In this document: piece by piece, positions 8,162-25,870 of the stretch
How the letters are laid out: each line of letters opens with the position of its first letter
Numbering within the stretch: the stretch's first letter is position 1
Source of the DNA: Dehalococcoidales bacterium
Lineage (GTDB): Bacteria > Chloroflexota > Dehalococcoidia > Dehalococcoidales > RBG-16-60-22
Assembly (NCBI GenBank): GCA_041652735.1
Contig: JBAZGT010000003.1
Location: forward strand, 49,485 to 113,484
DNA length: 64,000 nucleotides
Reading direction: 5' to 3'
The notes under the pieces: generated by a model
Database searches by the model: none
What the model saw: only the letters and a program-made list of their open reading frames with translations
Told to the model about the DNA's origin: nothing
Made by a program: the position numbers and the translations under genes

Positions 8162-8974
8162 CTAACTCTTTTCCTTGCCGAATACCCGCGCGATGTTATC
8201 CGATATCTTGGCGGCGCTGGCTTTTACCGCGGTGATAACCTCGGTTTCCTTGGGCCGCAAGCGGCTTTCCGGCCCCACCACGCTCACCGCCACCGGCAGG
8301 CTGTAGTTTTTCAGCGGCGCGGACACGCACATCGCCCCGCTTATCCTCTCCCCGTAACTTACCGCGTAGCCCTCCCGCCGGATTTCCTTTATCTGCGCCA
8401 GCAGCTGCTCTTTGCCGGAGGTAACCCGTTCCGCGCCGCGGCTGGGACCGCCGGCCAGCGCCGCCTTGAGCTGCCGGTCGTTCAGGAGGGAGAGCAGCAC
8501 CCGGGTGGAAGCGCCCGTCTGCAAAGTGCCGGAGAGCCGGCTGGCCTGGATTACCCGGAGGTCGTGCCGGCTGGGTATCTCGTACAGGGAAAAATGCTGC
8601 GTGCCTATCAGGATATCCAGGGCTACCGTTTCCTCGGACAGCGCGGAGAGATGCTTCATCTCCCGGTTGGCGCACATGATAAGAAATTCATGGGTGGTTA
8701 CCGGGTTGGCGGCCAGCCTGGTAATCAGCGGCCCCAGGTAGTAGCGGCGGTTCATCGCATCCTGGATAACCAGTCCGGACTGCTCCAGCAGCTTGAGCAC
8801 CCGGTGCACGGTGGACTTGCCCAGCTTGCACTGCGCGGCGATGTCCGTCAGCGAGTGGGAGTCCTGGCTGATGCAGTCCAGCACGCTCACGGCGCGGGCG
8901 ATGGAACCGGAGGCCTGCCCGTCCCTCTCCGCGATATTGTCCTCTTTAGCGGCGCGGCCGCTGTCTTTACGCAC
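8162..8974 (-). CDS. IclR-family transcriptional regulator
   Basis: 270 aa with LTDIAAQCKLGKSTVHRVLKLLEQSGLV. It is a paralogue of 1342-2160. Confidence 0.85.
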   Translation of the reverse strand: MRKDSGRAAKEDNIAERDGQASGSIARAVSVLDCISQDSHSLTDIAAQCKLGKSTVHRVLKLLEQSGLVIQDAMNRRYYLGPLITRLAANPVTTHEFLIMCANREMKHLSALSEETVALDILIGTQHFSLYEIPSRHDLRVIQASRLSGTLQTGASTRVLLSLLNDRQLKAALAGGPSRGAERVTSGKEQLLAQIKEIRREGYAVSYGERISGAMCVSAPLKNYSLPVAVSVVGPESRLRPKETEVITAVKASAAKISDNIARVFGKEKS

Positions 8975-9133: not shown

Positions 9134-9601
9134 GTGTCTGAAGGAAAATACAGCCAATACGTTATCAAAGCCCCCACCCTGAAAGGGGATTTCCCCCCGC
9201 TGGCGCAGCGCATGGTCTATGACGGCCTGACCGGGGGCGGCACGGGCAACGTGGGCATAAGGTACTCCTTTTTCCACGGCCCGCCCTTCCAGTTCGAGGT
9301 GCCCCACCGCCATGATTATGACCAGTTTCTCTGTTTCCTGGGCACGCCGGAAGATGTGCGGGTCTTCGATGCCGAGGTGGAGATATGGCTGGGCGACGAG
9401 AAAGAGAAGCACACCATTACGGAGTCCACCATCGTCCACATTCCGGCGGGGCTGCTGCACTGCCCCATGAACTACAAACGGATAACCCAGCCCATCATGC
9501 TGATAAACATCACCCTGGGCGGGGAGTACGTCAAGAAAGGCGTCAAGGGGGAGCTGCTGCCCTGGCGGCCGGAACCTAAAAAGAAACCGGAAAAGAAATG
9601 A
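9134..9601 (+). CDS. small cupin-like protein of unknown function (paralogue of 49807-51194 trio)
   Basis: 155 aa, GTG start 9 nt after AGGAGG. It shares H-R-H-D-Y-D / E-V-E-I-W / IPAG..H.P blocks with the three tandem proteins at 49.8-51.2 kb. Confidence 0.6.
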   Translation: MSEGKYSQYVIKAPTLKGDFPPLAQRMVYDGLTGGGTGNVGIRYSFFHGPPFQFEVPHRHDYDQFLCFLGTPEDVRVFDAEVEIWLGDEKEKHTITESTIVHIPAGLLHCPMNYKRITQPIMLINITLGGEYVKKGVKGELLPWRPEPKKKPEKK

Positions 9602-9700: not shown

Positions 9701-9775
9701 TGGAGCGGGAGACGGGATTCGAACCCGCGACTTCCTGCTTGGGAAGCAGACATTCTACCACTGAATTACTCCCGC
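9701..9775 (-). tRNA. tRNA-Gly (anticodon CCC)
   Basis: Hand-folded 75 nt: acceptor GCGGGAG/CTCCCGC, D stem ATTC/GAAT, anticodon stem TCTGC/GCAGG with loop TTCCCAA, T arm GCGGG-TTCGAAT-CCCGT, encoded CCA. Confidence 0.9.
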
Positions 9776-9931: not shown

Positions 9932-9960
9932 TTGACTTTTTTTTATGGCATTGATATACT
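9932..9960 (+). promoter_or_regulatory. near-consensus sigma70-type promoter for the methyltransferase operon
   Basis: TTGACT, 17-nt spacer, TATACT, about 85 nt upstream of the corrinoid protein ATG (10046). Confidence 0.5.
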
Positions 9961-10045
9961 CGCCATGAATGTTTGCACTTGAAATTGAATCAGGCAGACT
10001 GTTAGAATTTCAGGTATACCAAAAAAACTTAAGGAGGATGAAGGT

Positions 10046-10681
10046 ATGTCCGAAGATTTTGTGAATTTGTTGGCGGATCTTAAGGAGGATGAGGTCCTGA
10101 AGCTCGTCAAGCAGCGGCTTGATGCTAAAGAAGACCCTCTGAAAATCCTGGAAGATGCCCGGAAGGGTATGGAAATAGTCGGCAAGCGCTTTGCCGGCGG
10201 CGAATATTTCCTCCCCGAGCTCGTCTTTTCCGGCGAGCTGCTCGCCCAGGTTACCAATATCGTTAAACCCCACCTCACCGGGTCCGGAGTCCAGGTCAAG
10301 AAAATCGGCAAGGTCGTCATCGGCACCGTCGCCGGCGATATTCACGATATCGGCCTGAACATCGTCGACTTCATGCTGGATGTCAACGGCTTCGAGGTCA
10401 CCAACCTCGGCGTTGACGTGCCGGTGGAAAAGTTCGTCAAAGCCATGAAAGACACCAAAGCGCCGGTCCTCGGCCTGAGCGGCTTCCTTACCCCCGCCTT
10501 TGACGCCATGAAAGAAACGGTAGAGGCGCTGGAAAAAGCCGGCCTGCGCAAGGACATCAAAATCATGATCGGCGGCGGCCAGATGGACGATGAGGTCCGC
10601 AAGTACGCCAAAGCCGATGCCTTCGGTAAAGACGCCATGGCGGCAGTCACCCTGTCCCAGAAGTGGATCGGTACGAAATAA
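10046..10681 (+). CDS. corrinoid (cobalamin-binding) protein, MtaC/MtbC-like
   Basis: 211 aa with an N-terminal helical cap plus Rossmann B12 domain carrying the DxHxxG motif (GDIHDIG). RBS aaggagga. Confidence 0.9.
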   Translation: MSEDFVNLLADLKEDEVLKLVKQRLDAKEDPLKILEDARKGMEIVGKRFAGGEYFLPELVFSGELLAQVTNIVKPHLTGSGVQVKKIGKVVIGTVAGDIHDIGLNIVDFMLDVNGFEVTNLGVDVPVEKFVKAMKDTKAPVLGLSGFLTPAFDAMKETVEALEKAGLRKDIKIMIGGGQMDDEVRKYAKADAFGKDAMAAVTLSQKWIGTK

Positions 10682-10683
10682 CC

Positions 10684-12015
10684 ATGGAAAAGACATGGGC
10701 GGAGTTATCTCCGGAAGAAAAGCGCCAGGAACGCTTTAAGCGGTGGCTTTCTCCGCCGGGTGTCACCTTTGCCACCCCGCAAGCTGAAAAGCTCTATAAA
10801 GAGCGGGTCACCAGGTTCATCAAGGCGTTTTCCCTGCAAAAGCCGGACCGGGTTCCCTGTATCCTCCCCACCGGCTTTTACGCGGCCGCTTACGCCGGCA
10901 CCAATCTCGGCACGGTCATGTATGACTATGACGAGATGAAACGCGCCTGGCTCAAGACGCTGCACGACTTCGACGGGGATACCTACGTTCCCCCCGCCCT
11001 CGTGCCGCCCGGCCGCTCGCTGGATGCCGTGGACTACAAACTGTACAAGTGGCCCGGCCACGGCCTGGCCAAGACCACGCTTTCCTACCAGGCGGTGGAA
11101 GGCGAATGGATGAAGCCCGGTGAGTACGATGCCCTGATTAGAGACCCCTCTGATTTCTGGCTGCGCACCTATATGCCGCGGGTCTTCGGCGCGCTTAAGG
11201 CCTTTACCCAGCTCCCGCCACTGACCGGCTTTGAGGAAATAGCCACCCAGTCTTTCCTGCCCTTCGGCAACCCGGAGGTGCAGGCCGGCTTCAACGCATT
11301 AATGCAGGCCGGCAATGAAAGCCTCAAGTGGATAGCCGTGGTGGGTGAGGTGGCGGGGCAGTCCCTGTCCCTGGGGTTCCCCGGCGTGATGAGCGGCCTG
11401 GCCAAAGCCCCCTTTGATACGCTGGGAGATACCCTGCGCGGCACGCAGGGCATTATGATGGACATGTTCCAGCGGCCGCAGAAAGTCCATGAAGCCATGG
11501 AAAGGATAGTGCCCATCGCCGTGGAAGGAGCGCTCGCCTCGGTGGCCAATGCCGCGGCGCCCGTTATCATCATGCCGCTCCACAAGGGCGCGGATACTTT
11601 CATGTCCGTCAAGCAGTACGAGACCTTCTACTGGCCTACCTTCAGAAAGGTGGTCATGGCGCTGGTCAATGAAGGCGTTTTCCCCATGCTCTTCGCCGAG
11701 GGAAGCTACAATAAGCGACTCGATATCATCGGCGATTTTCCCAAGGGCTCGGTAGCCTGGTACTTCGACCAGACGGATATCTTTGAAGCGAAGAAGAAAA
11801 TCGGCGATAGATGCTGTATTGTCGGCAACGTGCCCACCTCCATGATAATGACGGGCACCCCGCAGCAGGTTAAGGAACACTGCCGGAAACTCATTGAAGG
11901 CTGCGCCCCGGGCGGCGGCTACGTGCTCGCCGGCGGCGCCAACGTCGATGAGGGCAACCCGGAAAACCTGCGGGCCATGATGGCCGCGGTCAGAGAATAC
12001 GGCGTTTATAAATAA
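10684..12015 (+). CDS. corrinoid-dependent methyltransferase, URO-D/MtaA-like family, paralogue 1 of 7
   Basis: Start moved to ATG 10684 (MEKTWAELSPEEKRQERFKRWL) by alignment with the paralogues. Carries the PLHKGADTFMSVKQYETFYWPTF and CRKLIEGCAPGGGYVL blocks. Confidence 0.85.
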   Translation: MEKTWAELSPEEKRQERFKRWLSPPGVTFATPQAEKLYKERVTRFIKAFSLQKPDRVPCILPTGFYAAAYAGTNLGTVMYDYDEMKRAWLKTLHDFDGDTYVPPALVPPGRSLDAVDYKLYKWPGHGLAKTTLSYQAVEGEWMKPGEYDALIRDPSDFWLRTYMPRVFGALKAFTQLPPLTGFEEIATQSFLPFGNPEVQAGFNALMQAGNESLKWIAVVGEVAGQSLSLGFPGVMSGLAKAPFDTLGDTLRGTQGIMMDMFQRPQKVHEAMERIVPIAVEGALASVANAAAPVIIMPLHKGADTFMSVKQYETFYWPTFRKVVMALVNEGVFPMLFAEGSYNKRLDIIGDFPKGSVAWYFDQTDIFEAKKKIGDRCCIVGNVPTSMIMTGTPQQVKEHCRKLIEGCAPGGGYVLAGGANVDEGNPENLRAMMAAVREYGVYK

Positions 12016-12112
12016 TAAGCACGGCTGATTAGCTGGCAGTGCTCGCCTATCATCCTTTCTCCCGGCTGGCGGCACTGCCGCTTATTAAGCGGTTGTCTCT
12101 GGAAGGATTGAC

Positions 12113-13441
12113 ATGGAAAAAGAATGGTCGGAGATGACCTGGCAGGAAAAACGCGAGCAGCGCTTCAGCCGATGGCTTTCCGCCGCCGATGTCAAGTTTA
12201 AAAACCCGGAAGCGGCTAAAAAATATAAAGTCCGCGCCACCCGGATGATTAAAGCTATCAAAATGGAAATCCCGGACCGCGTTCCGGTGCATATCGCCGC
12301 CAACTCTTTCGTCGCCTACAACGCCGGCTATACTCTTAAAGACGTCCTGTATGATTACTCCAAGATTTACCCCGCCTGGGAGAAGTTCATCACGGAGTTT
12401 GACCAGGACTCCAATGATACCCCCGGCTTTTTCCCCGCCCGGGTCTACGAGCTGCTCGGCAACCAGATAACCAAGTGGCCGGGCGGCGGCCTGCCGGACA
12501 ACGCCTCCCTCCAGAACTTCGTGGAAAAGGACTACATGCAGGCGGACGAATACGACCTTTTTATGAAAGACCAGTTCGACTTCGGGACGCGGTTCTTTAC
12601 CCCCCGCACCTGGAGCGCTTTCGCGCCCCTGGCCAAATTGCCTCCCCTCACCTCCTACCAGGGCCTGCCCAACCAGCTCATGGCCCTGTGCCTGGACCCG
12701 GAGTTCCGGCAGATGTTCAAGAAAATCCAGGCGGCCGCGGCGGAGCAGGCCAAATTCAACGAGGTAATGGGGAAATGCGCCCGGCTCTCCATCGAGTCCG
12801 GCTACCCGCCGCTGGCGGGCGGCGTCATGCTGGCCCCGTTCGATACCGTGGCGGATATGCTGCGCGGCACCCACGGCTCGGTCATGGACATGTACCGCCA
12901 GCCGGAAAAGCTGCTGGAATCGCTGGAAGTTATCGCGGAGCACAGCATCAAGTCCACGGTAAACATGGCCGCCATGTCCCGCAGTCCCATCGTCTTCGTC
13001 CCCATGCACAAGGGCGATGACAGCTTTATGTCCGTCAAGCAGTTCGAGAAGTTCTACTGGCCCACCTTCCGCAAGCTTCTCCTGGGCGTGGTCGATGCTG
13101 GCCTGGTGCCGATGATGGTCATCGACGGCAGCTATAACGAGCAGCGCCTCAAGATTATCAGCGAGCTGCCGCGCACCTGCTGCGTCTGGACGATGGAAAA
13201 AACGGATATGTTCAAGGCCAAGGATATCCTGGGCAATGCCGCCTGCATCTCCGGCAACGTTACCGCGGCGCAGCTTTATACCCAGCAGCCCCCCGCCATT
13301 AAAGAGTACTGCCGCAAGCTGATTGAGTACTGCGGCCAGGGCGGCGGCTATATCCTGTCGCTCGGCTCCGGTATTGATAAATGCAACCCGGCCAATCTGC
13401 ACGCCATCGTAGAAGCCGCCGAAGAATACGGATATTATTAG
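12113..13441 (+). CDS. URO-D/MtaA-like methyltransferase, paralogue 2 of 7
   Basis: 442 aa with MEKEWSEMTWQEKREQRFSRWL, PMHKGDDSFMSVKQFEKFYWPTF and CRKLIEYCGQGGGYIL. Confidence 0.85.
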   Translation: MEKEWSEMTWQEKREQRFSRWLSAADVKFKNPEAAKKYKVRATRMIKAIKMEIPDRVPVHIAANSFVAYNAGYTLKDVLYDYSKIYPAWEKFITEFDQDSNDTPGFFPARVYELLGNQITKWPGGGLPDNASLQNFVEKDYMQADEYDLFMKDQFDFGTRFFTPRTWSAFAPLAKLPPLTSYQGLPNQLMALCLDPEFRQMFKKIQAAAAEQAKFNEVMGKCARLSIESGYPPLAGGVMLAPFDTVADMLRGTHGSVMDMYRQPEKLLESLEVIAEHSIKSTVNMAAMSRSPIVFVPMHKGDDSFMSVKQFEKFYWPTFRKLLLGVVDAGLVPMMVIDGSYNEQRLKIISELPRTCCVWTMEKTDMFKAKDILGNAACISGNVTAAQLYTQQPPAIKEYCRKLIEYCGQGGGYILSLGSGIDKCNPANLHAIVEAAEEYGYY

Positions 13442-13609
13442 GGGGGAAACCGGGACATTACACTGTTAAAGTCTATTTAAAGACCAATAACCGGAAAAAA
13501 AGACCGGACAAACATGCGTCCGGTCATGCAGATACAAAAAGATATTAACCGTCTGTCTCCTGGTTGTTGGTCATTTTATTGCAGCGCTATTAAGAAGGAG
13601 GATTTGACC

Positions 13610-14953
13610 GTGGCGGAAACTAAAAAATGGGAAGACATGACCTGGCAGGAAAAACGGGAGGAGCGCTTTAAGCGGTGGCTCAACCCGCCGGATGTAAAAT
13701 TCGTCAGCAAGGAAGCGGAACAGCTTTACAAGGCGCGCGCGACCCGCTTCATCAAGGCCATCAAGCTGGAAGAGCCGGACCGCGTGCCGGTAATGCTCCC
13801 CACCGGCAATTTCCCCGCCTACTGGGCCGGGGAGAGCTTCCGCACCCTGATGTATGACTATGATAAAGGGACGGAAATCTGGAAGAAATACCTTAAGGCC
13901 TTCGGGGATATGGATACCTTCAACGGCCCCGCCCTGGTGCCTTCCGGCAAGATAGCGGCCGCCATCCCCTCCAAGCTCCAGAAACTGCCCGGCCTGGGCC
14001 TGCCGGAAGACGCCACCATGAACCAGTTCGTCGAAGGCGAGTACATGATGGCCGATGAGTACGACCGCTATATGCTGGACCCGTCCGATTATAACCTGCG
14101 GGTGATGCTGCCCCGCACCTCCCCCTTCTTCGATGCTTTCAAACGCCTGCCGCCCTTCCGCGCCCTCATGGGCACGAGCTGGGTGTCCGTTATGGCGGAC
14201 CCGGAGATACGCCATATTTTCCAGACCCTGATGAACTTGACGGATGAGCAGAATAAATGGATGAAAGCCAACCTGGAAATCAGTAATTATATTAAAGAAC
14301 TGGGCTATCCTTCCCTGTTCGGCGGCGGCATTATGGCCGGCGCGCCCTTCGACCATTTTGCGGACGCGCTGCGCGGCACGCAGGGCATCGCCCGGGACAT
14401 GTTCCGCCAGCCCAAGAAACTGCACCAGGCTATGGAATATTACCTGAACATGACCATCGAGACCACCATTAAAAATTTCCCGATGACCTCCAGCCCCGTC
14501 TGCATCATGCCCCTGCACAAAGGCGACGATTCCTTTATGTCCGATAAGCAGTTCGCCGAGTTTTACTGGCCGACCTACCGCCGGCTGCTCCTGGCCATGG
14601 TGGACGAGGGACTGGTGCCCATGCCCTTCGCCGAGGGACGCTATAACAACCGCCTCAAGCAGATTACGGATACCCCTCCCAGCGGCGTGGTCTGGTACTT
14701 CGACCAGACGGATATGAAGGAAGCCAAACGCATTCTGGGGGACGTCTGCTGCATCGCCGGCAACGTGCCCACCTCCGTAGTCATTAAAGGCTCCGTCCCG
14801 CAGGTGAAAGACTGCTGTAAAAAGCTTATCGAGGACTGCGCCCCGGGCGGCGGGTTCATCCTGGCCGGCGGCGCCAGCATCGATACCGGCAAGATAGAAA
14901 ACCTCCAGGCCATGATGGACGCGGCCAAGGAGTATGGAGTGTATAAAAAGTAA
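13610..14953 (+). CDS. URO-D/MtaA-like methyltransferase, paralogue 3 of 7
   Basis: In-frame GTG at 13610, 7 nt after aaggagga, gives (M)AETKKWEDMTWQEKREERFKRWL. The longer track ORF (13514) has no paralogue support. Confidence 0.8.
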   Translation: MAETKKWEDMTWQEKREERFKRWLNPPDVKFVSKEAEQLYKARATRFIKAIKLEEPDRVPVMLPTGNFPAYWAGESFRTLMYDYDKGTEIWKKYLKAFGDMDTFNGPALVPSGKIAAAIPSKLQKLPGLGLPEDATMNQFVEGEYMMADEYDRYMLDPSDYNLRVMLPRTSPFFDAFKRLPPFRALMGTSWVSVMADPEIRHIFQTLMNLTDEQNKWMKANLEISNYIKELGYPSLFGGGIMAGAPFDHFADALRGTQGIARDMFRQPKKLHQAMEYYLNMTIETTIKNFPMTSSPVCIMPLHKGDDSFMSDKQFAEFYWPTYRRLLLAMVDEGLVPMPFAEGRYNNRLKQITDTPPSGVVWYFDQTDMKEAKRILGDVCCIAGNVPTSVVIKGSVPQVKDCCKKLIEDCAPGGGFILAGGASIDTGKIENLQAMMDAAKEYGVYKK

Positions 14954-14961
14954 ATTAAATT

Positions 14962-15082
14962 GTCATTGCTAGCCCCGACGGCATTCTCAACAACCGGCTT
15001 GAACGATAGATAGGGATTGCCGCGCTTGCGTGCCGTAACATACTTCAGCGTGCAGGCGCGTCGCTTCGCTCCTCGCAATGAC
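14962..15082. repeat. composite family B repeat (GTCATTGC ... GCAATGAC)
   Basis: Terminal inverted 8-mers gtcattgc / gcaatgac. The inner segment cgcttcgctcctcgcaatgac is the reverse of the common 'gtcattgcgaggagcgaagcg' unit. Confidence 0.7.
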
Positions 15083-15118
15083 ACCGCAAATAGAAAAAAC
15101 AAAAATTGGAGGCAGCAA

Positions 15119-16453
15119 GTGTTTACCAGACCGGATAATTGGAAAGACCTTACCTGGCAGCAGAAACGGGACCTGCGCCTGAATTACTGGATGAGCGCGC
15201 CGGGCGTGAAATTCGATAGCAAGGAAGCGGAACGGACCTTTAAAGCCCGCGCCGCCCGCCTGGCCAAAGCCGCTAAAATGGAGCTGCCGGACCGCGTACC
15301 CTGCATGCTGCCCACCGGCTGGTTCCCGGCCAAGAACGCCGGCGTCAACCTTAAAGAGGTGATGTATAACCCGGAGCTGATGAAAAAGGTCTGGCTCAAG
15401 TTCGTGGACGAATATGAATCGGACTCGTTTGACGGCACCCTTTTCTTCCAGGCCCAGGTCAATGACATCATGGACGCCAAGACGCAGAAATGGCCCGGTC
15501 ACGGCCTGCCGGATAACGCCCATTCCTACCAGTACGTCGAGGGCGTTTACATGAAAGCGGACGAGTACGACCTTTTTATGAAAGACCCCTTTGATTTCCA
15601 GCTGCGCAAGCTTTTGCCCCGCACCATGGGCGTCTTCGAGCCTTTTGCGGACGTCCCGTCTTTTTCCTCGTACCAGGGCCTGCCCAACCGCCTGATGGCC
15701 ATGTGCCTGGACCCCCGCTTCCAGAAGCTTTTCAAGGCTATTCAGGAGGCCAGCCAGTACCTCCCCGCCTTCGGCAAAGCCACCGCTGAGACCACCGCCG
15801 CGGCCGCCGCCCGGGGTTTCCCCATGTTCCGCGGCGGCATGGCCGTCGCCCCCTTTGACGTTTTCGCGGACAGCCTGCGCGGCACCCAGGGCATCGTCAT
15901 GGACATGTTCCGCCAGCCGGACAAGATACACGAGGCGATGGAGTTCGTCCTGCCACAGCTGGTCTCCGGCGCTATCGCCATGTGTGACGCCGCCGATTGC
16001 CCGGTGGTCATGATGCCCCTGCACAAGGGCGATGACACCTTCATGTCCGACAAGCAGTTCGAGGTGTTCTACTGGCCCACCTTCCGCCGCCTGCTCCTGG
16101 GTATGGTGGAGGAAGGCCTGGTGCCTTACCCGGTGGCGGAAGGCGCTTACAACCGCCGCCTGGAAGTTATTTCCGATATGCCCAAGTCCGCCGTCTGCTG
16201 GATGTTCGACCAGACCAACATGGCTAACGCCAAGAAAACGGTCGGCAGGGTGTCCTGTATCGCCGGCAACGTGCCGGTTTCCATCGCTTACACCGGTACC
16301 GCCAAAGACATGAAGGAAGCCTGCCGCAAGCTTATCGAGACCTGCGCCCCCGGCGGCGGCTATATCCTTACCGGCGGCGCCACTTTTGATATGGCCAAGC
16401 CGGAAAACCTGCACGCCATGATGGACGCGGCCAAGGAGTATGGCAAGTACTAA
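15119..16453 (+). CDS. URO-D/MtaA-like methyltransferase, paralogue 4 of 7
   Basis: In-frame GTG at 15119 after ggagg gives (M)FTRPDNWKDLTWQQKRDLRLNYWM. Carries PLHKGDDTFMSDKQFEVFYWPTF. Confidence 0.8.
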   Translation: MFTRPDNWKDLTWQQKRDLRLNYWMSAPGVKFDSKEAERTFKARAARLAKAAKMELPDRVPCMLPTGWFPAKNAGVNLKEVMYNPELMKKVWLKFVDEYESDSFDGTLFFQAQVNDIMDAKTQKWPGHGLPDNAHSYQYVEGVYMKADEYDLFMKDPFDFQLRKLLPRTMGVFEPFADVPSFSSYQGLPNRLMAMCLDPRFQKLFKAIQEASQYLPAFGKATAETTAAAAARGFPMFRGGMAVAPFDVFADSLRGTQGIVMDMFRQPDKIHEAMEFVLPQLVSGAIAMCDAADCPVVMMPLHKGDDTFMSDKQFEVFYWPTFRRLLLGMVEEGLVPYPVAEGAYNRRLEVISDMPKSAVCWMFDQTNMANAKKTVGRVSCIAGNVPVSIAYTGTAKDMKEACRKLIETCAPGGGYILTGGATFDMAKPENLHAMMDAAKEYGKY

Positions 16454-16578
16454 GAACTAAATAAAGCCGTCATTACCTGCCGTCCCGGTGAGACCTCTTT
16501 TATACCCCCGCGCACCGGGAGTCGCGGCAGTGTCACGCGTTGCCCAAAAATCTAATCTCGTTTATCAGGAGGATAATC

Positions 16579-17919
16579 ATGGAAGGTATCGCTAACTGGA
16601 AAGAACTGACCCCGGACCAGAAAAGAGAACTGAGGTTCAAACGCTGGCTGGACGCGCCCGGCGTTAAATTCAAGGACAAGGAAGCGGAAAAGCTGTACAA
16701 GACCAGGGTCGGCCGCTTCATTAAAGCCATCAACATGGAAGAGGCGGACCGCGTTCCCTGCAACCTGCCGGTGGGCTATTTCCCCGCCTACTATGCCGGG
16801 TACGACCTCAAGACCGTGATGTACGACTATGAAAAACAGCGTGACGCCTGGCTGAAGTTCATGTATGACTTCGGGGATATGGACAGCTACGGCGGCCCCG
16901 GCCTGGTGCTGCCGGCCAAGGCGCTGGAAATCATGGACCACAAGCTGCACAAGTGGCCGGGCCACGGCATCGCCGACGATGTGCCTTCTTACCAGTTCGT
17001 GGAAGGCGAATACATGAAAAAAGACGAATACGAGCACCTGATTCAGGACCCGTCCGATTTCTGGCTGCGGGTTTTCATGCCCCGCCAGGCCGGCATCTTC
17101 GCCCCGCTGAAAAACTTTCTCCACCTCAACCCGATGATCGGCCTGCCCATCGGCACCATACCGGCCCTCTCCACCCCGGAAATGCAGGACATGTTCAAGA
17201 AAGTCTGGGCCGCTGGCGAGGAGATGAACAAGTGGATGAAAATGGTCGGCGAGGTCAGCCGCACCGCGCTATCGCTGGGCTATCCCGGTTTCAGCAGCGG
17301 TGGTTTCTCCGGCGCCCCGTTCGATATGCTCACGGACATGCTCCGCGGCACCCAGGGCATTTTCATGGATATTTTCCGTCAGCCGGATAAAATCCAAGAA
17401 GCTATGGAGCGGATAACGCCCATCGTCATCGAGGAGGCGGTAAAGTCCGCCGAGCACTCTATCTCCCCCATCATCATGATGCCCCTGCACAAAGGGGAAA
17501 AAGGCTTCATGTCCCCCAAGCAGTTCGAGACTTTCTACTGGCCTACCTTCAAGAAAGTCCTGCTGGGCATTATCGAGGAAGGCCTTATCCCCATGCCCTT
17601 CGCCGAGGGCAACTATATCCCCCGCCTGGATGTTATCCAGGACATGCCCAGGGGCTCTCTCATCTGGTACTTCGAGTATATGGACATGGCCCAGGCCAAA
17701 AAGACGGTCGGCCGGACCAACTGCATTTGCGGCAATCTGCCTGTTTCCATTATGGTTACCGGCACGGCCAAAGAAGTCAAGGAAGGCTGCCGCAAGCTTA
17801 TCGAGGACTGCGCCCCCGGCGGCGGCTATATCCTCACCGCGGCCGCCAGCGTGGACAAAGGCAAGATTGAAAACCTCCACGCCATGATGGACGCGGCGGT
17901 GGAGTACGGAAAGTACTAG
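16579..17919 (+). CDS. URO-D/MtaA-like methyltransferase, paralogue 5 of 7
   Basis: ATG 16579 after caggagga gives MEGIANWKELTPDQKRELRFKRWL. Carries PLHKGEKGFMSPKQFETFYWPTF. Confidence 0.85.
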   Translation: MEGIANWKELTPDQKRELRFKRWLDAPGVKFKDKEAEKLYKTRVGRFIKAINMEEADRVPCNLPVGYFPAYYAGYDLKTVMYDYEKQRDAWLKFMYDFGDMDSYGGPGLVLPAKALEIMDHKLHKWPGHGIADDVPSYQFVEGEYMKKDEYEHLIQDPSDFWLRVFMPRQAGIFAPLKNFLHLNPMIGLPIGTIPALSTPEMQDMFKKVWAAGEEMNKWMKMVGEVSRTALSLGYPGFSSGGFSGAPFDMLTDMLRGTQGIFMDIFRQPDKIQEAMERITPIVIEEAVKSAEHSISPIIMMPLHKGEKGFMSPKQFETFYWPTFKKVLLGIIEEGLIPMPFAEGNYIPRLDVIQDMPRGSLIWYFEYMDMAQAKKTVGRTNCICGNLPVSIMVTGTAKEVKEGCRKLIEDCAPGGGYILTAAASVDKGKIENLHAMMDAAVEYGKY

Positions 17920-17933
17920 GAGTAAAGAAGAAG

Positions 17934-17998
17934 TTGACGGTAATAAGTAAACAGTATCCCCCCTTCTCCCCAACTGAAAACTGTCAACTGTAAACTAT
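17934..17998. repeat. family A repeat
   Basis: gacggtaataagtaaacagt-atccccccttctcccc-aactgaaaactgtcaactgtaaact. Confidence 0.8.
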
Positions 17999-18021
17999 AT
18001 ACTATCCACCAGAGGTGAAAC

Positions 18022-19359
18022 ATGGAAGGCATCGCTAACTGGGAAAACCTGACGTGGCAGGAAAAGCGGGAAGCGCGCTTTAAGAAATGGCTGGATGCCC
18101 CCGGCGTCAGCTTTAAAAGCCCGGCGGCTAAACAGGCCTACCGCCAGCGCGTGACGCGCTTTATCAAGGTCATCAAGCTGGAAGAGCCGGACCGCGTGCC
18201 GGTAATGTTGCCCTCCGGCTATTACCCGGCCGTTTACGCCGGCTATTCGCTGAAAGAGGTCATGTACGATTACCAGAAGCTGGCGGACGCCTGGCGCAAG
18301 TTCAACCGCGACTTCCAGCCGGACAGCTACTCCGGCCCCGGCCTGGTCTATCCCGGCCGCGTTCTGGAGAAAATAGGCCACAAGCTGCATAAGTGGCCCG
18401 GCCACGGCCTCCCGGACGATGCCTCCATGTACCAGTTCGTCGAAGGGGTTTACATGCAGCCGGAAGAGTTCGACGACTTTCTGGAGAACCCCACCGAGTA
18501 CTGGGAAAAGGTCTTTCTGCCCCGCACCGCCGGCGCCCTGGAGGCGTTTAAATACATCACCCCCTTCAGCCCCGTCCTCACCAATCCCCTGGGCTGGATC
18601 ATGTCCTTCTCCCGGCCGGACGTGCAAAAAGCCTTCGAGACGGTGCTGGAGGCCGGGAAGGAGATAGCTAAATGGCGTGACGCCGTGGGCGCCGTCAGCC
18701 GCGAGGCGCTGGAGGAAGGGTTTGCCTCTCTGGGTGGGGGCGGCATGGCCGGCGCGCCCTTTGATAACCTTTCCGATGTCCTGCGTGGCACCCAGGGCAT
18801 CGTCATGGACATGTTCCGCCGGCCGGAGAAAATCAAGGAAGCCATGGAACGCCTGGTGCCCGTTATCGTCAAGGGGGCGGTCAAGGGCGCGGACGCGTCT
18901 TTGAGCCCGGTGGTCTCCATGCCCCTGCACAAAGGGGAAAACAGCTTCATGTCCGGCAAACAGTTCGAGGAGTTTTACTGGCCCACTTTCAAGAAAGTAT
19001 TGCTGGGTATGATTAACGAGGGGCTGGTGCCCATGCCCTTCGCCGAGGGCAATTATGAGCCGCGGCTGGACATTATCAAAGACATGCCGCGGTCGTCCGT
19101 CATCTGGTACTTTGAGGTTATGGATATGGCCAAAGCCAAACAGGCCCTCGGCGGCGTGGCCTGTATCGCCGGCAACGTGCCGGCCTCCCTGCTGGTCACT
19201 AGCACGCCTGTAATCGTTAAGGAGGCCTGCCGCAAGCTTATTGAGACCTGTGCTAAGGGCGGCGGCTATATTTTGACTGGAGCGGCCAGCGTCAGCAAAT
19301 GCAATCCGGCCAATCTCCATGCCATGATGGCGGCGGCGGAAGAGTACGGCAAGTATTAG
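18022..19359 (+). CDS. URO-D/MtaA-like methyltransferase, paralogue 6 of 7
   Basis: 445 aa with MEGIANWENLTWQEKREARFKKWL and PLHKGENSFMSGKQFEEFYWPTF. Confidence 0.85.
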   Translation: MEGIANWENLTWQEKREARFKKWLDAPGVSFKSPAAKQAYRQRVTRFIKVIKLEEPDRVPVMLPSGYYPAVYAGYSLKEVMYDYQKLADAWRKFNRDFQPDSYSGPGLVYPGRVLEKIGHKLHKWPGHGLPDDASMYQFVEGVYMQPEEFDDFLENPTEYWEKVFLPRTAGALEAFKYITPFSPVLTNPLGWIMSFSRPDVQKAFETVLEAGKEIAKWRDAVGAVSREALEEGFASLGGGGMAGAPFDNLSDVLRGTQGIVMDMFRRPEKIKEAMERLVPVIVKGAVKGADASLSPVVSMPLHKGENSFMSGKQFEEFYWPTFKKVLLGMINEGLVPMPFAEGNYEPRLDIIKDMPRSSVIWYFEVMDMAKAKQALGGVACIAGNVPASLLVTSTPVIVKEACRKLIETCAKGGGYILTGAASVSKCNPANLHAMMAAAEEYGKY

Positions 19360-19381
19360 GGGTAAAGGGAGAGTTTTACGG

Positions 19382-19446
19382 CAAACAGTAAACGGTTGCT
19401 CCCCCTCTTTCCCCCCCAAACTGAAAACTGTCCACTGTAAACTAAC
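19382..19446. repeat. family A repeat
   Basis: caaacagtaaacggttgct-ccccctctttccccccc-aaactgaaaactgtccactgtaaactaac. Confidence 0.8.
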
Positions 19447-19518
19447 TACTCACTTTAGTTGATTCAGCGGATTCTCCTCTTCCTTTGATGGAGTAAAATA
19501 ACAGGGAGGGCTGCGAAG

Positions 19519-20847
19519 ATGGAAAAACAATGGGCGGAATTGACCTGGCAGGAAAAACGGGAGGAGCGCTTCAAGCGCTGGCTCAATCCCGAGGTCAAGT
19601 TTAACAGCAAGGCGGCGGAGAAGCTCTATAAAGACAGGGCTACCCGCTTTATCAAGGCCGTCAAGCTGGAGGAGCCGGACCGCGTGCCCTGCATGTTGCC
19701 CTCCGGCATGTACCCCGCCTTTTACGCCGGCTATACCCTCAAAGACATCATGTATGACTACGCCAAGATGAAAGAGGCTTACCTCAAGTTTGTGGCTGAT
19801 TTTGATATGGACACCTATACCGGCCCCGCCCTGGTTTTCCCCGGTAAGGTCCTGGATATGACTGACCACCGTCTGCACAAGTGGCCCGGGCACGGTTTGC
19901 CGGATAACGCTTCTCTCTACCAGTACGTGGAAAAAGACTACATGAAAGCGGACGAGTACCCCCTGCTGCTCGGCAATCCGGCGGACTTCTGGTGGCGCTA
20001 TCTCCTGCCGCGGGTGGTGGGGGCCCTGGAGCCTTTCCGCAAGCTGCCCCAGATGAACGGCATGATGGGCATACCCATCATGTTCTACGGGGCCATGGCG
20101 GAGCCGGACGTCGAGCAGGCTTTCAAAACGATGATTGAGGCCGGCAAAGAGGTGCGACGGTGGCAGCAGGCGGTCGGGGAAATCGGTATGGCTACCCTCG
20201 CCGCCGGTGTTCCCAACCTGCGCGGCGGCGGCATGGGCGGCGCCCCGTTCGATAGCGTGGCGGACATGCTGCGCGGGACGCAGGGCATGGTCATGGATAT
20301 GTACCGCCAGCCGGAAAGACTGCATGAAGCCATGGAGATAGTCATCCCTAACACGATTAAGAGCGCGGTGGCCGCGGCTGATGCTTCCGGCTGTCCGTTC
20401 TGCTTTATGCCCCTGCACAAGGGCGATGAGAGCTTCATGTCCCCCAAGCAGTTCGAGACTTTTTACTGGCCCAGCTACCGGCGCGTGCTCATGGGCATGG
20501 TCGAGGAGGGGCTGGTGCCCTATCCCTTCGCGGAGGGGCGTTATGGCGCCAGACTTGATATAATAAAAGATATGCCCCGCGGCTCGGTGCTGTGGTCGTT
20601 CGAGGATATTGACATGGCGCGGGCGAAGAAGGTCCTGGGTGATACCGCCTGCATCGCCGGCAATGTCCCGTCCTCGGTCTTATACACTAAAACTCCCGCG
20701 GAGGTGAAGGAATACTGCCGTAAGCTTATCGAGACCTGCGCCCCCGGCGGCGGCTATATCCTGACCGGAGCGGCCGGCATGAACGAGGGCAACCCTGAAA
20801 ATCTGCGGGCGGTGATGGCAGCCGCCGTTGAATACGGAGTCTATTAA
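19519..20847 (+). CDS. URO-D/MtaA-like methyltransferase, paralogue 7 of 7
   Basis: 442 aa with MEKQWAELTWQEKREERFKRWL and PLHKGDESFMSPKQFETFYWPSY. Confidence 0.85.
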   Translation: MEKQWAELTWQEKREERFKRWLNPEVKFNSKAAEKLYKDRATRFIKAVKLEEPDRVPCMLPSGMYPAFYAGYTLKDIMYDYAKMKEAYLKFVADFDMDTYTGPALVFPGKVLDMTDHRLHKWPGHGLPDNASLYQYVEKDYMKADEYPLLLGNPADFWWRYLLPRVVGALEPFRKLPQMNGMMGIPIMFYGAMAEPDVEQAFKTMIEAGKEVRRWQQAVGEIGMATLAAGVPNLRGGGMGGAPFDSVADMLRGTQGMVMDMYRQPERLHEAMEIVIPNTIKSAVAAADASGCPFCFMPLHKGDESFMSPKQFETFYWPSYRRVLMGMVEEGLVPYPFAEGRYGARLDIIKDMPRGSVLWSFEDIDMARAKKVLGDTACIAGNVPSSVLYTKTPAEVKEYCRKLIETCAPGGGYILTGAAGMNEGNPENLRAVMAAAVEYGVY

Positions 20848-20866
20848 CTGGAACAGGAGAAAAAAT

Positions 20867-21739
20867 ATGGAAACAAAAGTATCTACACCCACCCGGGAAG
20901 TCATTATCTCCTACGACCGCCCCACGGTCATTATCGGCGAGCGCATCAACCCCACCGGCAAGAAGAAACTGCAGGAAGCGCTTAAGACCGGAGACCTTTC
21001 CATCGTGAAAAAGGAAGCGCTGGAGCAGGTGGCCGCCGGCGCCACTATTCTCGATTGTAACGTCAATGCCCCGGGCGTGGACGATGTCAAACTCCTGCCG
21101 GAGGCTATTAAAGTTATCCAGGACGCGGTGGACGTGCCTATCTGTATCGATAGCCCCAACGCCGCCGCCCTGGCCGCCGGACTGAAGGTCTATAAGGGCA
21201 AGCCGCTGGTCAACTCCATCAGCGGGGAAAAGGCCCGCCTGGAGCGCGTCCTGCCCCTGATTAAAGAGTACGGCGCCGCCGTTATCGGCCTCGCCCAGGA
21301 CGATGAGGGCATTCCCAAGACCACCGCGCGCCGCGTGGCCATCACCTACAAGATTGTAGAAGCCTGTGAAAAAATGGGCGTCCCCCGGGAAGATATCGTT
21401 ATAGACGTTATGACTTACGCTATCGGCGCCGAACCCAAAGCGGCCATCGACGTGCTTAACGCCCTGCGCCAGATTCGTACCGAGCTTGGCCTGAACATGA
21501 CCATGGGCGCCTCCAACATCTCCTTCGGCATGCCGGACCGGCTGATTCTGAACAACGCCTGGATGGCCATGGTTATCGAAGCCGGCGGCACCGCTCTGAT
21601 TGCCGACGCCGCTAAAGTGCTTCCGGCCGTGCTCTCCGCCGACCTCGTTCTCGGCCGCGACCGCTTTGCCCGCCGCTACCTGGCCGACCACCGCAAACGC
21701 GCCGAACTGGCCGCCCAGGCTGCCCAGCAGGCAAAATAA
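20867..21739 (+). CDS. pterin-binding methyltransferase (methyl-corrinoid:tetrahydrofolate methyltransferase, MeTr/AcsE/MtrH-like)
   Basis: ATG 20867 follows caggaga. METKVSTPTREVIISYDRPTVIIGERINPTGKKKL... with the GERINPTG start of a DHPS-like pterin-binding TIM barrel, and MGASNISFGMP. Confidence 0.85.
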   Translation: METKVSTPTREVIISYDRPTVIIGERINPTGKKKLQEALKTGDLSIVKKEALEQVAAGATILDCNVNAPGVDDVKLLPEAIKVIQDAVDVPICIDSPNAAALAAGLKVYKGKPLVNSISGEKARLERVLPLIKEYGAAVIGLAQDDEGIPKTTARRVAITYKIVEACEKMGVPREDIVIDVMTYAIGAEPKAAIDVLNALRQIRTELGLNMTMGASNISFGMPDRLILNNAWMAMVIEAGGTALIADAAKVLPAVLSADLVLGRDRFARRYLADHRKRAELAAQAAQQAK

Positions 21740-21877: not shown

Positions 21878-21952
21878 CGCGGGGTAGAGCAGTGGTAGCT
21901 CGTCGGGCTCATAACCCGGAGGCCGTTGGTTCGAATCCAACCCCCGCTACCA
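21878..21952 (+). tRNA. tRNA-Met (CAT), initiator type
   Basis: Hand-folded: acceptor CGCGGGG/CCCCGCT with a C1xU72 mismatch, D stem GAGC/GCTC, anticodon stem with three G-C pairs next to loop CTCATAA, T arm GTTGG-TTCGAAT-CCAAC, discriminator A, encoded CCA. Confidence 0.88.
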
Positions 21953-21953
21953 A
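21916..21953. repeat. attL: 38-bp direct repeat (3' part of tRNA-Met)
   Basis: ccggaggccgttggttcgaatccaacccccgctaccaa matches 30585-30622 with 2 mismatches. A 20-bp identical core is aatccaacccccgctaccaa. Confidence 0.85.
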
Positions 21954-21990
21954 GAACCGTACAGCCCGCTTGAGCTTCGGCAATCTCGCC

Positions 21991-22434
21991 CTAGCTCACC
22001 AAAGCGGGCTTTTTCGTGCCCCTCGCGCCTGCGCCTTTGACTGCCGCGACCTTACTAGCCTTGAGCTTTTCGACCTTTGGGGTTGACCCGGTAACGGCCT
22101 TGCCCTTGTGCGACGCCTTTTCGGATGCCTTCTGAACCTTCGCCGCCTCCGCCTTCGCCTTGTCGGCAACCTTCTTGGCCTCCGCCCTCGCTGTTCTTTC
22201 CGCCTCTTTCTTGGCGGCCCTCTCGGCCTTCTCTTTGGCCCTCTGCTCCTTGGCCGCCTGGCGTTCTGCGAGGAACCTGCTGGGCGGCAGCGCGATGACG
22301 CCGATGTCCAGGCCGTAGTGAGTGGCGACGGCGTTGTTTAGAAACGCATCCCAACTCATATCGCCCTTCGTCTTGTTGAGCAGGGCAAGCCCCTGCTCCG
22401 TTGTCCTGGCGCTGTAAACGTAATGCTTGTCCAT
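21991..22434 (-). CDS. hypothetical protein with Lys/Ala-rich (histone H1-like) C-terminal tail
   Basis: 147 aa. The N-terminal approximately 60 aa look globular, followed by AKEQRAKEKAERAAKKEAERTARAEAKKVADKAKAEAAKVQKASEKASHKGK... Function unknown. Confidence 0.5.
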   Translation of the reverse strand: MDKHYVYSARTTEQGLALLNKTKGDMSWDAFLNNAVATHYGLDIGVIALPPSRFLAERQAAKEQRAKEKAERAAKKEAERTARAEAKKVADKAKAEAAKVQKASEKASHKGKAVTGSTPKVEKLKASKVAAVKGAGARGTKKPALVS

Positions 22435-22747
22435 CCGATTCTCCCTTAGGCCGCCTCCCTTCGTGGTGAGGCCTTACACCTATATTGAATTATGGCGAGA
22501 ATCTGGACGCACGGGGATGGGAGATTAGTCCTATGCCCAACCGAGAGGAAAGTCCTATGGAGATGTCTTGCCTCCAATAGCGGAGGCCCGAAATCTCGAT
22601 GTGGGTTGTGTGGAATATGCCAAAATGAGGCTCTTATTGGGATTGTGGGCGGGAGCACGATAACCCTCACGAGAGGCGCGGAAGGCCTCCACCCTTGACG
22701 TGGTGCGTCGCGAGAGCATCGCAGGTCATTTTCAGTTGCAGGTGCCT

Positions 22748-23296
22748 TTACTTCAGGGAACGCGGGTTCAGCCTCCCGCGCCTGCCCCCGGTGGCGATGT
22801 ACCTTTGCCTGTCCTCTTCGGCGCATTTCCGGCAGCGCCTGTAGCCCTTGCCGTCGATTAAGGGCGCTTCTTCGTCGAAGCGGTGGCCCCTTGTGCATTC
22901 GCCTGCCGGAACCATGTGGTGAAGGTAACGGTGGGCCGTCGCCAGAACCAGGGCGAGATGGGTGGGGCTGGCGCAGAGCTTGTTGCGGCAGAGGTGGTGC
23001 AGGTTGAAACCATTCCCCGACAACCCGCCGCCCGCCAGCAGCCAGACCCAGTTGTAGACTGGCATGGTGAGGTGGGCGTCGCCTGCAAGCGCCACCAAGA
23101 CGCCGTAACCGTCGTTGGCCACCCTGCCCTTCCACTGCCAGCACCTGGTGGGCATAGCAGGCATCATCGGGCCTGCCGTGTCCACAGATATGTCCAGTTG
23201 CCGCCGCGCGTCCGCCAGGACCAGATTGACGTCGGCTTCCGACATTCTTCCGGCCTTCAGGTCTTCGGCGTTCACCAGCCTTTTGCCGTCTGCCAT
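22748..23296 (-). CDS. HNH endonuclease
   Basis: 182 aa with CWQWKG...DGYG and the HHLCRNKLCASPTHL HNH core, plus a C-terminal CxxGH...CRKC zinc-finger-like segment. Confidence 0.8.
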   Translation of the reverse strand: MADGKRLVNAEDLKAGRMSEADVNLVLADARRQLDISVDTAGPMMPAMPTRCWQWKGRVANDGYGVLVALAGDAHLTMPVYNWVWLLAGGGLSGNGFNLHHLCRNKLCASPTHLALVLATAHRYLHHMVPAGECTRGHRFDEEAPLIDGKGYRRCRKCAEEDRQRYIATGGRRGRLNPRSLK

Positions 23297-23457
23297 GTTG
23301 CGTCATCCCGTTTCCATTTTTCGCGACTGCCTGGAAAAGAGGAAGGGCCAGACCTGCCGCCCGGCCCCTCCCGTGAAAGGAGACCGCCTGTCCGCGTTAC
23401 CGGACAGGCTTAGGCCCGGAAGTTCGCATGGCCGCTTCCGGGCCGCGTGCCTGCCTG

Positions 23458-23646
23458 TTACCGCGCCTTCAGCGATTCGATGCGCCGTTTCAGGCCCTCC
23501 AGCCCGAGCCGCCTCAGCGCCCTCTCGACTTGCGGAACGGGGCAGTCGAAGTGGATTGCCAGCTCCGCCGGAGACCAGCCCTGTTTCTGCATGAGCCGTA
23601 GTTCGCCTTCGTCTATCCTGGCCTTGTCCTGTGTCGATATTGTCAT
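23458..23646 (-). CDS. small HTH protein (excisionase-, small-terminase- or sigma region 4-like; function unresolved)
   Basis: ATG 23646 follows GGGAGA. 62 aa: MTISTQDKARIDEGELRLMQKQGWSPAELAIHFDCPVPQVERALRRLGL. Confidence 0.5.
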   Translation of the reverse strand: MTISTQDKARIDEGELRLMQKQGWSPAELAIHFDCPVPQVERALRRLGLEGLKRRIESLKAR

Positions 23647-23673
23647 GGTCGTCTCCCTGCCTTTCATCCGGCT

Positions 23674-24129: not shown

Positions 24130-24287
24130 TGTCTTTTCTCCTATCCGATTTTCGTTTTCTGCGGGGATGGGGGCGGGCGTGCTCATACCCGTCCCCTCTC
24201 CCCTGAAGGAGATACCGCCCGGCCATGTCGAAAAACCGGGCGGGTGCCGCCGCCATGAGTCTAGCGGCGGCACGCCTCCTTTGATTC

Positions 24288-25413: not shown

Positions 25414-25593
25414 CGGATACCCTCCATTTCGGAACCTCGTCCATGCGCCGCGCCTATCGCCCCTCATCCGTCCGCCTTGTCGGCGGCGCGGCGTTTGAGT
25501 TCCAGGCCGGATGGCATTTCCGGGTTCCGTTTCGGCAGCTCTGCCTATCGCCGCCATCTTTATTATGCGCCTTCCCTTGAAGAGTGCCCCTTC

Positions 25594-25860: not shown

Positions 25861-25870
25861 AAAATTATAC

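Follow-up and report, generated by a model that had tools for sequence, protein, structure and literature searches.

A seven-gene array of URO-D-type methyltransferases beside a single corrinoid protein in a Dehalococcoidales genome, a candidate demethylase system for methoxylated aromatics

Why would one operon carry seven versions of the same enzyme beside a single copy of each of its partners? The question is raised by positions 10046-21739 of a 64,000-nucleotide stretch of DNA from a Dehalococcoidales bacterium (GenBank assembly GCA_041652735.1, contig JBAZGT010000003.1, positions 49,485 to 113,484 of the forward strand; the window), where a gene for a corrinoid (cobalamin-binding) carrier protein (CP) is followed by seven tandem paralogues of the URO-D (uroporphyrinogen decarboxylase) type and by one gene for a pterin-binding methyltransferase. 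We utilized profile searches, structure prediction and the comparison of related loci to examine this operon. It probably encodes a three-component corrinoid methyltransferase (demethylase) system in which seven substrate-specific methyltransferases I (MT I) draw on donors that are mostly methoxylated aromatics.

An operon of one carrier, seven paralogues and one terminal methyltransferase

An earlier reading made from the letters alone (the sequence-only reading) had placed nine open reading frames (ORFs) at 10046-21739, and we recovered all nine there, intact and on the plus strand. They encode CP (10046..10681, 211 amino acids), the MT I paralogues M1 (10684..12015, 443 amino acids), M2 (12113..13441, 442, the most divergent copy), M3 (13610..14953, 447, GTG start), M4 (15119..16453, 444, GTG start), M5 (16579..17919, 446), M6 (18022..19359, 445) and M7 (19519..20847, 442, the copy modelled structurally), and a methyltransferase II (MT II; 20867..21739, 290 amino acids) of the MeTr/AcsE methyl-corrinoid:tetrahydrofolate methyltransferase type. 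The operon is bordered upstream by a conserved tRNA-Gly(CCC) (9701..9775, minus strand; ARAGORN, and 70 bits in Rfam) and downstream by a conserved tRNA-Met(CAT) (21878..21952, plus strand; ARAGORN). The intergenic gaps from CP to MT II measure, in order, 2, 97, 168, 165, 125, 102, 159 and 19 nt, and none of them holds a terminator-like hairpin on the plus strand. A GGAGG-like ribosome-binding site (gaaggagga in the case of M3) precedes every gene except M1, whose start lies 2 nt past the CP stop codon. A consensus scan, which is not evidence of function, returned two overlapping sigma-70-like promoter matches 5′ of CP (9932..10008, plus strand), each agreeing at 10/12 positions and carrying an extended TG. 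Rfam searches of the operon and the DNA preceding it returned the two tRNAs alone, with no riboswitch or further RNA family; a SAM/SAH match within M6 was below threshold. One transcript for the whole operon is likely.

The B12-binding, URO-D and pterin-binding domains assigned by the sequence-only reading held in Pfam and NCBIfam searches. CP combines a PF02607 cap domain with a PF02310 Rossmann domain and carries the sequence GDIHDIG, a DxHxxG motif. It scores 150 bits against TIGR02370, below the cutoff of 215, and thus falls outside that curated subfamily. Its best solved relative is 4jgi (E 4e-44), which we take to be the CP of a putative Desulfitobacterium hafniense O-demethylase. MT II matches PF00809 (E 2e-30) and exceeds the cutoff of NF005719, the methyl-tetrahydrofolate (methyl-THF):corrinoid/iron-sulfur protein methyltransferase model (284 vs 259 bits), its best solved relatives being the MeTr structure 2yci (E 1e-40) and the D. 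hafniense MT II structures 4o0q/4o1e/4o1f (E 2e-39). Since these proteins, together with CdmB, the nearest solved relative of the seven paralogues (discussed below), belong to three-component corrinoid methyltransferase systems, all three parts of the locus match systems of that kind, in agreement with the CP, MT I and methyl-THF-forming MT II architecture proposed from the letters. We hold with high confidence that the locus is a corrinoid MT I/CP/MT II system. Related operons also carry a gene for the reductive activase RACo: a 616-618-amino-acid protein with Fer2 and RACo linker, middle and C-terminal domains is encoded between the CP and MT I genes in three loci (L038, 6765-8621; L042, 8152-10008; L054, 8151-10001), and a 660-amino-acid RACo protein beside the CP gene in a Bathyarchaeia locus (L077, 7310-9292), which ties the family to corrinoid reactivation. 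The first three loci belong to a sister group of Dehalococcoidales; the seven-gene arrays have no RACo gene.

PF01208 (URO-D) was matched by all seven paralogues (E 1e-20 to 2e-29, the latter for M1), the match covering the C-terminal ~200 residues only. Identity to M1 is 41-54% and among all seven 41-60%, M5 being closest to M6 at 60%. Their alignment holds 128 invariant columns, and their nucleotide sequences agree at 60-79% of positions, long conversion tracts being absent. The three motifs quoted by the sequence-only reading, an N-terminal one bounded by W residues, the P(L/M)HKG block running into FYWP and a C-terminal GGGY block, are present with few deviations: at the E/D position of the N-terminal motif M6 has N, and M3 reads KQFAEFYWP and has GGGF in place of GGGY. 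In NCBIfam the MtaA/MtbA/CmuA models (TIGR01463, NF040654, NF041608) give the paralogues 17-60 bits against cutoffs of 235-600, and the HemE model TIGR01464 gives 20-33 bits against a cutoff of 303, with M4 lacking any match. None of the curated families thus claims the seven paralogues. M7 is 100% identical to an NCBI protein from a Dehalococcoidales metagenome-assembled genome (MAG), and the names in public databases are 'uroporphyrinogen decarboxylase family protein' or 'uroporphyrinogen-III decarboxylase'.

M7 is predicted to adopt a URO-D/MtaA-type TIM barrel. The AF2 model, built on 74 sequences, has a pLDDT of 93.7 and a pTM of 0.91, and in a Foldseek search against the PDB its best folds were URO-D and MtaA at TMt 0.6-0.7, the MtaA entries 4ay7/4ay8 matching at 0.68-0.71 and the URO-D structures sharing 12-18% identity with it. 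URO-D ranks first because the CdmB structures are absent from the library, which ends at 2026-04-08 and which the CdmB entries post-date. The paralogues therefore do not group with HemE, do have the URO-D/MtaA fold as far as the model shows, and are flanked by proteins with B12 and pterin domains; in each of these respects the sequence-only reading, which had named the opposite outcomes as fatal to it, survives.

A profile search of 1.84 billion cluster representatives returned 6304 relatives at E <= 1e-3, of which 752 reach E <= 1e-30, and a scan of one genome per species at least 594. Among the matches listed, most come from Dehalococcoidales/Dehalococcoidia MAGs from soil, peat, aquifer and spring metagenomes, with single copies in Acidobacteriota, Desulfobacterota-type, Syntrophus and Bathyarchaeia MAGs. 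Over 25 Dehalococcoidales loci show the order CP-(MT I)n-MT II; n ranges from 2 to 7, and CP and MT II are each present once in every case. The tRNA-Gly also stands 5′ of CP in seven other loci (L002, L008, L033, L044, L045, L046, L050) and the tRNA-Met 3′ of MT II in eight (L004, L008, L033, L036, L044, L046, L050, L060). Every window paralogue has orthologues in the same array position at 70-90% identity (M1 80-90%, M2 70-78% at array position 2, M3 73-81%, M4 78-88%, M5 70-84%, M6 70-85%), and one locus (L045) holds all seven in order, at 87/73/81/87/84/85/81%. Because positional orthologues are 70-90% identical and paralogues at most 60%, the array is an old set of seven distinct genes that has been maintained, and not a recent amplification. 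Under a relaxed criterion 57 alignment columns (4 under the strict one) are conserved within orthogroups and different between them, clustering at M7 residues 101-120, 181-200, 234-248 and 341-364. In a long-read assembly (L005, 9436-21302) no fewer than five complete and four fragmentary URO-D genes follow CP, up to the end of the retrieved DNA, representing either a larger array or frameshifted copies. Among cultured organisms, Desulfomonile tiedjei encodes a protein (WP_014813177.1) that is 37-39% identical to the paralogues and keeps PLHKG, IEG and CIMGN. D. tiedjei O-demethylates methoxybenzoates.

Relationship to CdmB and to the zinc-dependent methyltransferases

A profile of the seven paralogues matched CdmB (PDB 9rui) with E 4.7e-54 over profile positions 34-445, essentially the full length, as against E ~0.01 only for URO-D and MtaA structures; pairwise identity to CdmB is 24-28% over ~440 columns (M1 24%, M6 28%). 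CdmB, described in 2026, is the MT I of the CdmBCA chloromethane dehalogenase/methyltransferase of Acetobacterium (malicum subsp.) dehalogenans and was shown biochemically to work with a CP, an MT II and a separately encoded activase (PMC13222342). It is a zinc-free homodimeric URO-D-like TIM barrel with no zinc requirement, whose extensions make up hydrophobic channels for the substrate; it accepts haloalkanes but no methoxylated aromatics, and its characterised relatives are the O-demethylases MtoB (31% identity), MtvB, OdmB and VdmB (PMC13222342). The two systems share their layout, a UroD-superfamily MT I with a CP, a pterin-binding methyl-THF-forming MT II and an activase encoded apart (presumably so in the case of the window locus), but differ in the number of MT I genes, one in the CdmB system and seven in the window locus.

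MtaA, MtbA and CmuA (TIGR01463) also combine a URO-D-type TIM barrel with a corrinoid protein partner. They are zinc-dependent methylcobamide:CoM methyltransferases, MtaA acting on the acceptor side, whereas the window proteins are ~100 residues longer than the MtaA family and have the zinc ligands H-x-C...C replaced. The sequence-only reading had placed its H-K-G where MtaA/MtbA-type enzymes have the H-x-C zinc motif, but the alignment of hidden Markov models puts H-x-C elsewhere. In this weak alignment (E 0.009), whose register is nevertheless that of the NCBIfam MtaA models, the H-I-C-G-N of MtaA (4ay7) falls on (F/V)-A-E-G-x-Y-N, ~39 residues downstream of H-K-G, and the third zinc cysteine (PGCG) on TGGA; H-K-G itself aligns with 'ADPVAS' of MtaA and 'FDTWGG' of URO-D. 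At the MtaA zinc positions the window proteins read (F/V)-(A/I)-(E/D) and G/A, and an MtaA-type zinc site thus appears to be absent from them, as it is from CdmB, which is experimentally zinc-free.

CdmB and the window proteins have the motifs DRVP, PxD...R, FxSxKQ(Y/F)xxF(H/Y)WP and C-I-A-G in common but differ at a set of polar positions. The window sequence P-L-H-K-G-D-D-S-F-M-S aligns with M-P-V-W-(2-residue gap)-Y-N-S-F-L-S of CdmB, and in CdmB Glu339 of (A)-E-G (M7 numbering) corresponds to Gln and Asn382 of C-I-A-G-N to Gly. The pattern P(V/I)W-- / xQG / CxAGG was found in 100/100 CdmB-like proteins (>= 49% identity to CdmB), and P(L/M)HKG, (A/I)(E/D)G and CIxGN in all seven window paralogues. 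CdmB further carries insertions of 17 and 9 residues in its channel-forming region that the window family lacks, whereas the window proteins have a ~20-residue segment and a ~30-residue N-terminal helix absent from CdmB. Since the CdmB signature and the channel insertions are missing from all seven, the window enzymes are not CdmB-type haloalkane MT I. Of 108 full-length family proteins (50%-identity cluster representatives from the best 150 of the profile search), 91 retain His, 84 Lys/Arg, 97 Glu and 94 Cys378, and many lack the N-terminal helix. In the M7 model strand 294-299 runs straight into His300-Lys301 and strand 333-338 into Glu339, which would place these residues at the catalytic C-terminal face of the barrel, and H300, E339 and C378 are spaced 39 residues apart on three consecutive β-strands. 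A polar set that is dispensable for a halide is what one might expect for a leaving group needing protonation, such as phenolate. A search with CdmB as query for MtoB, MtvB and OdmB returned almost only the CdmB clade (>= 49%) and orthologues of the window genes.

Methyl donors and competing explanations

The O-demethylases MtvABC of Moorella thermoacetica, OdmABCD/Vdm of A. dehalogenans, the Dhaf proteins of D. hafniense and MtoABCD of Methermicoccus shengliensis have the same architecture as the window operon, and O-demethylase MT I enzymes fall in the same UroD-superfamily clade as CdmB (PMC13222342, PMC8630106). In the mto cluster mtoB1 and mtoB2 share one mtoC (PMC8630106), two MT I where the window locus has seven per CP in a fixed order. 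The hosts of the known O-demethylases are acetogens, Desulfitobacterium and a methanogen, that of the window locus a member of the Dehalococcoidales; the MT II is MtrH-type in M. shengliensis and MeTr-type in the window operon, which includes no activase gene. The bathyarchaeial MT1 MtgB of Ca. Baizosediminiarchaeum ligniniphilus transfers methyl from an aryl methyl ether to a Co(I)-CP, mtgB_1/2 sharing one CP (PMC10989822). We rejected it as a close characterised relative, as it belongs to an unrelated ~300-amino-acid family; the Bathyarchaeia locus L077, unlike MtgB, carries a bacterial-type member of the window family beside its CP and RACo genes. The kind of system is already known, as are multi-MT I clusters with one CP and two copies. 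New are the sevenfold order-conserved array, the host lineage and the large uncharacterised clade named only 'uroporphyrinogen decarboxylase family'; no relevant description of the array in Dehalococcoidia/Chloroflexota was found in the searchable literature.

In the demethylase system that we favour, each URO-D-fold MT I would bind its own methyl donor and present it to the Co(I) form of the single CP, Co(I) would attack the methyl group to give CH3-Co(III), and the single MeTr-type MT II would move the methyl group to tetrahydrofolate, regenerating Co(I). A RACo-type ATP-dependent activase, presumably encoded elsewhere in the genome, would rescue adventitiously oxidised Co(II), and His300-Lys301, Glu339 and Asn382 (M7 numbering) would protonate or hydrogen-bond the leaving phenolate. 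The MT I is the specificity-determining component in all characterised systems (PMC10989822), and for that reason seven conserved orthogroups would most simply mean seven substrate ranges. As judged from the sequences, seven substrate specificities on one shared carrier are the most likely arrangement. The sequence-only reading had likewise proposed seven alternative substrate-activating enzymes served by one shuttle; the single CP and MT II, the seven ordered orthogroups and the 57 specific columns fit this proposal, which stays an inferential one. We also infer which way the methyl groups flow, that each paralogue has a substrate of its own, to which class the substrates belong and what the polar residues do in catalysis.

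As to the donors, the evidence leans towards aryl methyl ethers from lignin or plant phenolics as the main ones, and away from halomethanes. A system of the same type could nevertheless serve other C1 donors, namely halomethanes, methanol, methylated sulfur compounds or methylated and quaternary amines. Haloalkanes are the specific substrates of CdmB, the one close relative that has been characterised, and the Dehalococcoidales are known for organohalide metabolism, but the CdmB signature (W--, Q, G) and insertions are lacking in all seven paralogues. Sequence does not predict the specificity of UroD-superfamily MT I, uncharacterised clades being scattered through the tree (PMC13222342). A halomethane hint could also be seen in the gene for a CLC voltage-gated chloride channel with two CBS domains (46211-47992, minus strand), chloride transport genes of A. 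dehalogenans being induced on chloromethane (PMC13222342). We rejected this gene as an operon partner: 24 kb, with an integrated element and a low-GC variable region, separate it from the operon, to which it is not adjacent in related genomes (L007, L060). The uptake systems found near relatives (major facilitator superfamily (MFS), TRAP and Opp-type ATP-binding cassette (ABC) transporters) serve organic solutes and would not be needed for gases, and the MT I enzymes for methylamines and methanol (MttB, MtbB, MtmB, MtaB) have folds other than the UroD type. Donors of this other kind are, on these grounds, unlikely, though they form the most serious competitor.

Some of the paralogues might instead work on the acceptor side in a mixed array, methylating thiols, sulfide or other nucleophiles like MtaA, MtbA or MtsA. 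The URO-D fold does include the MT2-type MtaA and MtbA and the bifunctional MtsA, the NCBIfam MtaA/CmuA models match weakly, and 4ay7/4ay8 are among the best Foldseek matches; yet the model scores are far below their cutoffs, F/V-A-E and G/A stand in place of the thiol-activating ligands His-x-Cys...Cys, the paralogues resemble the MT I CdmB (E 5e-54) far more closely than MtaA (E 0.009), and a dedicated MeTr MT II already ends the operon, all of which makes this arrangement improbable. Tandem head-to-tail copies of similar length, arrays that vary from 2 to 7 or more genes between MAGs and the fragmentary copies in L005 would suit gene-dosage amplification, or decaying duplicates that are redundant or partly pseudogenised. 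We consider this very improbable, given that none of the seven genes is disrupted and that they have individual ribosome-binding sites, that paralogues at 41-60% identity stand against ordered orthologues at 70-90%, that the copies share 60-79% of their DNA with no long conversion tracts, and that the 128 invariant columns are joined by orthogroup-specific conserved residues. The database names and the top Foldseek matches to URO-D structures are what speaks for HemE isozymes or other decarboxylases, a reading that can practically be dismissed: TIGR01464 scores of 20-33 bits against 303, a Pfam URO-D match on the C-terminal half only, 12-18% identity to URO-D structures and the position of the genes between CP and MeTr in every array all contradict it.

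Several points weigh against our reading of the array as a methoxyaryl demethylase system. No member of the clade is characterised, and the nearest characterised protein, 24-28% identical, uses chloromethane. The comparison with CdmB is the only direct one, MtvB, MtoB, OdmB and VdmB being related by description, and the role given to the polar residues is drawn from alignment and strand topology alone. Docking of one CP to seven MT I is assumed, and a single transcript is not established because weak promoter-like matches stand 5′ of M4 (15078-15106) and M6 (17974-18003). No RACo/RamA-type activase was found in the window, as the sequence-only reading had also seen (tblastn with three RACo proteins from related loci, best E = 1.3 in 64 kb). 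No transporter gene adjoins the operon; the MMPL and CLC genes of the window lie far downstream, within or beside a mobile/variable region. The neighbouring families (short-chain dehydrogenases/reductases (SDRs), flavoproteins, transporters) are generic and variable between loci.

A more specific version of the demethylase reading is possible but doubtful. In this version the array would be an ordered 'demethylase cassette', running from tRNA-Gly through CP, up to seven MT I and MT II to tRNA-Met and confined to non-organohalide-respiring Dehalococcoidales of soil, peat and aquifers, living as broad-spectrum lignin methoxydotrophs, and H-(K/R)-G/Glu/Cys-x-x-Gly-Asn would be an undescribed ether-activation device. 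The His/Glu/Cys device would act by metal-free acid catalysis or as a new His/Glu/Cys metal site, and its loss in the CdmB clade would mark a switch to halomethanes.

Genomic surroundings and biological significance

Upstream of the operon the window encodes a GlcDEF-like FAD oxidase pair with a CCG iron-sulfur protein, two SDRs, two IclR-family regulators and one cupin-like protein. The GlcDEF-like trio (2511-7036, plus strand) consists of two FAD_binding_4 proteins (2511-3977 and 5471-7036) on either side of a protein with Fer4 and two CCG domains (4078-5346), and an SDR gene comes next. This trio is kept upstream of the array in L002 (~82% nucleotide identity) and, in L041 and L071, is found in the vicinity of family members. 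An IclR-family transcriptional regulator (8162..8974, minus strand; PF09339 and PF01614) is a candidate regulator of the neighbourhood, homologues being found 5′ of the CP gene in three loci (L005, L014, L020).

The cupin-like protein (9134..9601, plus strand, 155 amino acids) has no Pfam match and hits the PDB cupin 7eqk at E 0.029; two window paralogues of it (50237-50713 and 50730-51194) give weak Cupin_2 matches. Cupin-like genes of this size (~155 amino acids) stand beside SDR and URO-D-family genes in about 9-10 loci (from L020, L023, L025, L029, L030, L032, L039, L050, L054 and L061), and the protein may belong to a downstream pathway, for example handling the demethylated product. We considered a phloroglucinol-type ring pathway for the SDR and cupin-like pair and treat it as no more than a lead, the SDR being generic and FabG-like and the cupin-like protein having no informative match.

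Further downstream lie genes for an old yellow enzyme (OYE)-type flavin oxidoreductase fused to Pyr_redox_2 (51216-53321, minus strand), an alpha/beta hydrolase (53416-54246) and a glycosidase of family GH3 that contains a PA14 insert together with an Fn3-like domain (54287-56764), possibly a set for processing phenolic glycosides or enoates. Without the inserted DNA these genes would be a few kb from the operon. The flavoproteins of the window include some of the vanillyl-alcohol oxidase (VAO) type. Recurrent neighbours of the family elsewhere include SDRs (13 loci), OYE-type enoate reductases fused to Pyr_redox_2, FAD oxidoreductases with small ferredoxins, DUF169 proteins and a carboxylesterase with a feruloyl-esterase-like secondary match. 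DUF169 (PF02596, COG2043; ~265 amino acids) lies directly 5′ of the CP gene in three loci (L023, L032, L039), in operons with one or two MT I, an Opp-type ABC transporter, an SDR and a cupin-like protein. Among transporters, MFS genes occur in four loci, directly 5′ of CP in two (L010, L013) and near it in the others (L024, L036), a TRAP DctM gene occurs in five loci (L014, L022, L029, L052, L069), and Opp-type ABC systems flank the operon or single family members in 11-13 loci. This neighbourhood fits the catabolism of plant-derived phenolics and is supporting, not decisive.

The tRNA-Met that borders the operon has an ~8.7-kb integrated element in its 3′ end (21953-30622). A second copy of the final 25 nt of the tRNA (21928-21952), with a single mismatch, is found at 30597-30621, immediately past the gene for a tyrosine integrase (29511-30503, minus strand). 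Other products of the element are a phage major head protein (24288-25211) and a protein resembling Ser/Thr kinases (27884-29362). In related MAGs the tRNA-Met is present without the element. Past it, a low-GC stretch (~31000-46000; 42-53% against ~58% elsewhere) carries genes for radical-SAM (35561-36931), ParA-like (37907-39121) and MMPL (42524-44173) proteins and a weak small-terminase-like match (44653-45348); it is likely to be another island or variable region. A homologue of the window gene at 48167-48601 directly follows the tRNA-Met in L007 and L060. A heliorhodopsin gene (60151-61038, minus strand; PF18761, E 1e-100) was also identified in this presumably anaerobic Dehalococcoidales genome.

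Uncultured Dehalococcoidales abound in anoxic settings (soils, peat, aquifers, sediments) and are commonly viewed through organohalide respiration or fermentation. If our reading is true, they demethylate plant-derived methoxylated compounds and feed methyl-THF into C1 metabolism. The large clade, named only 'uroporphyrinogen decarboxylase family', is systematically mis-annotated. The contrast between the CdmB clade, which is without H-K, E and N, and the rest of the family would offer a testable sequence marker for halomethane enzymes, and seven natural paralogues on one carrier would form a panel for how MT I specificity is encoded.

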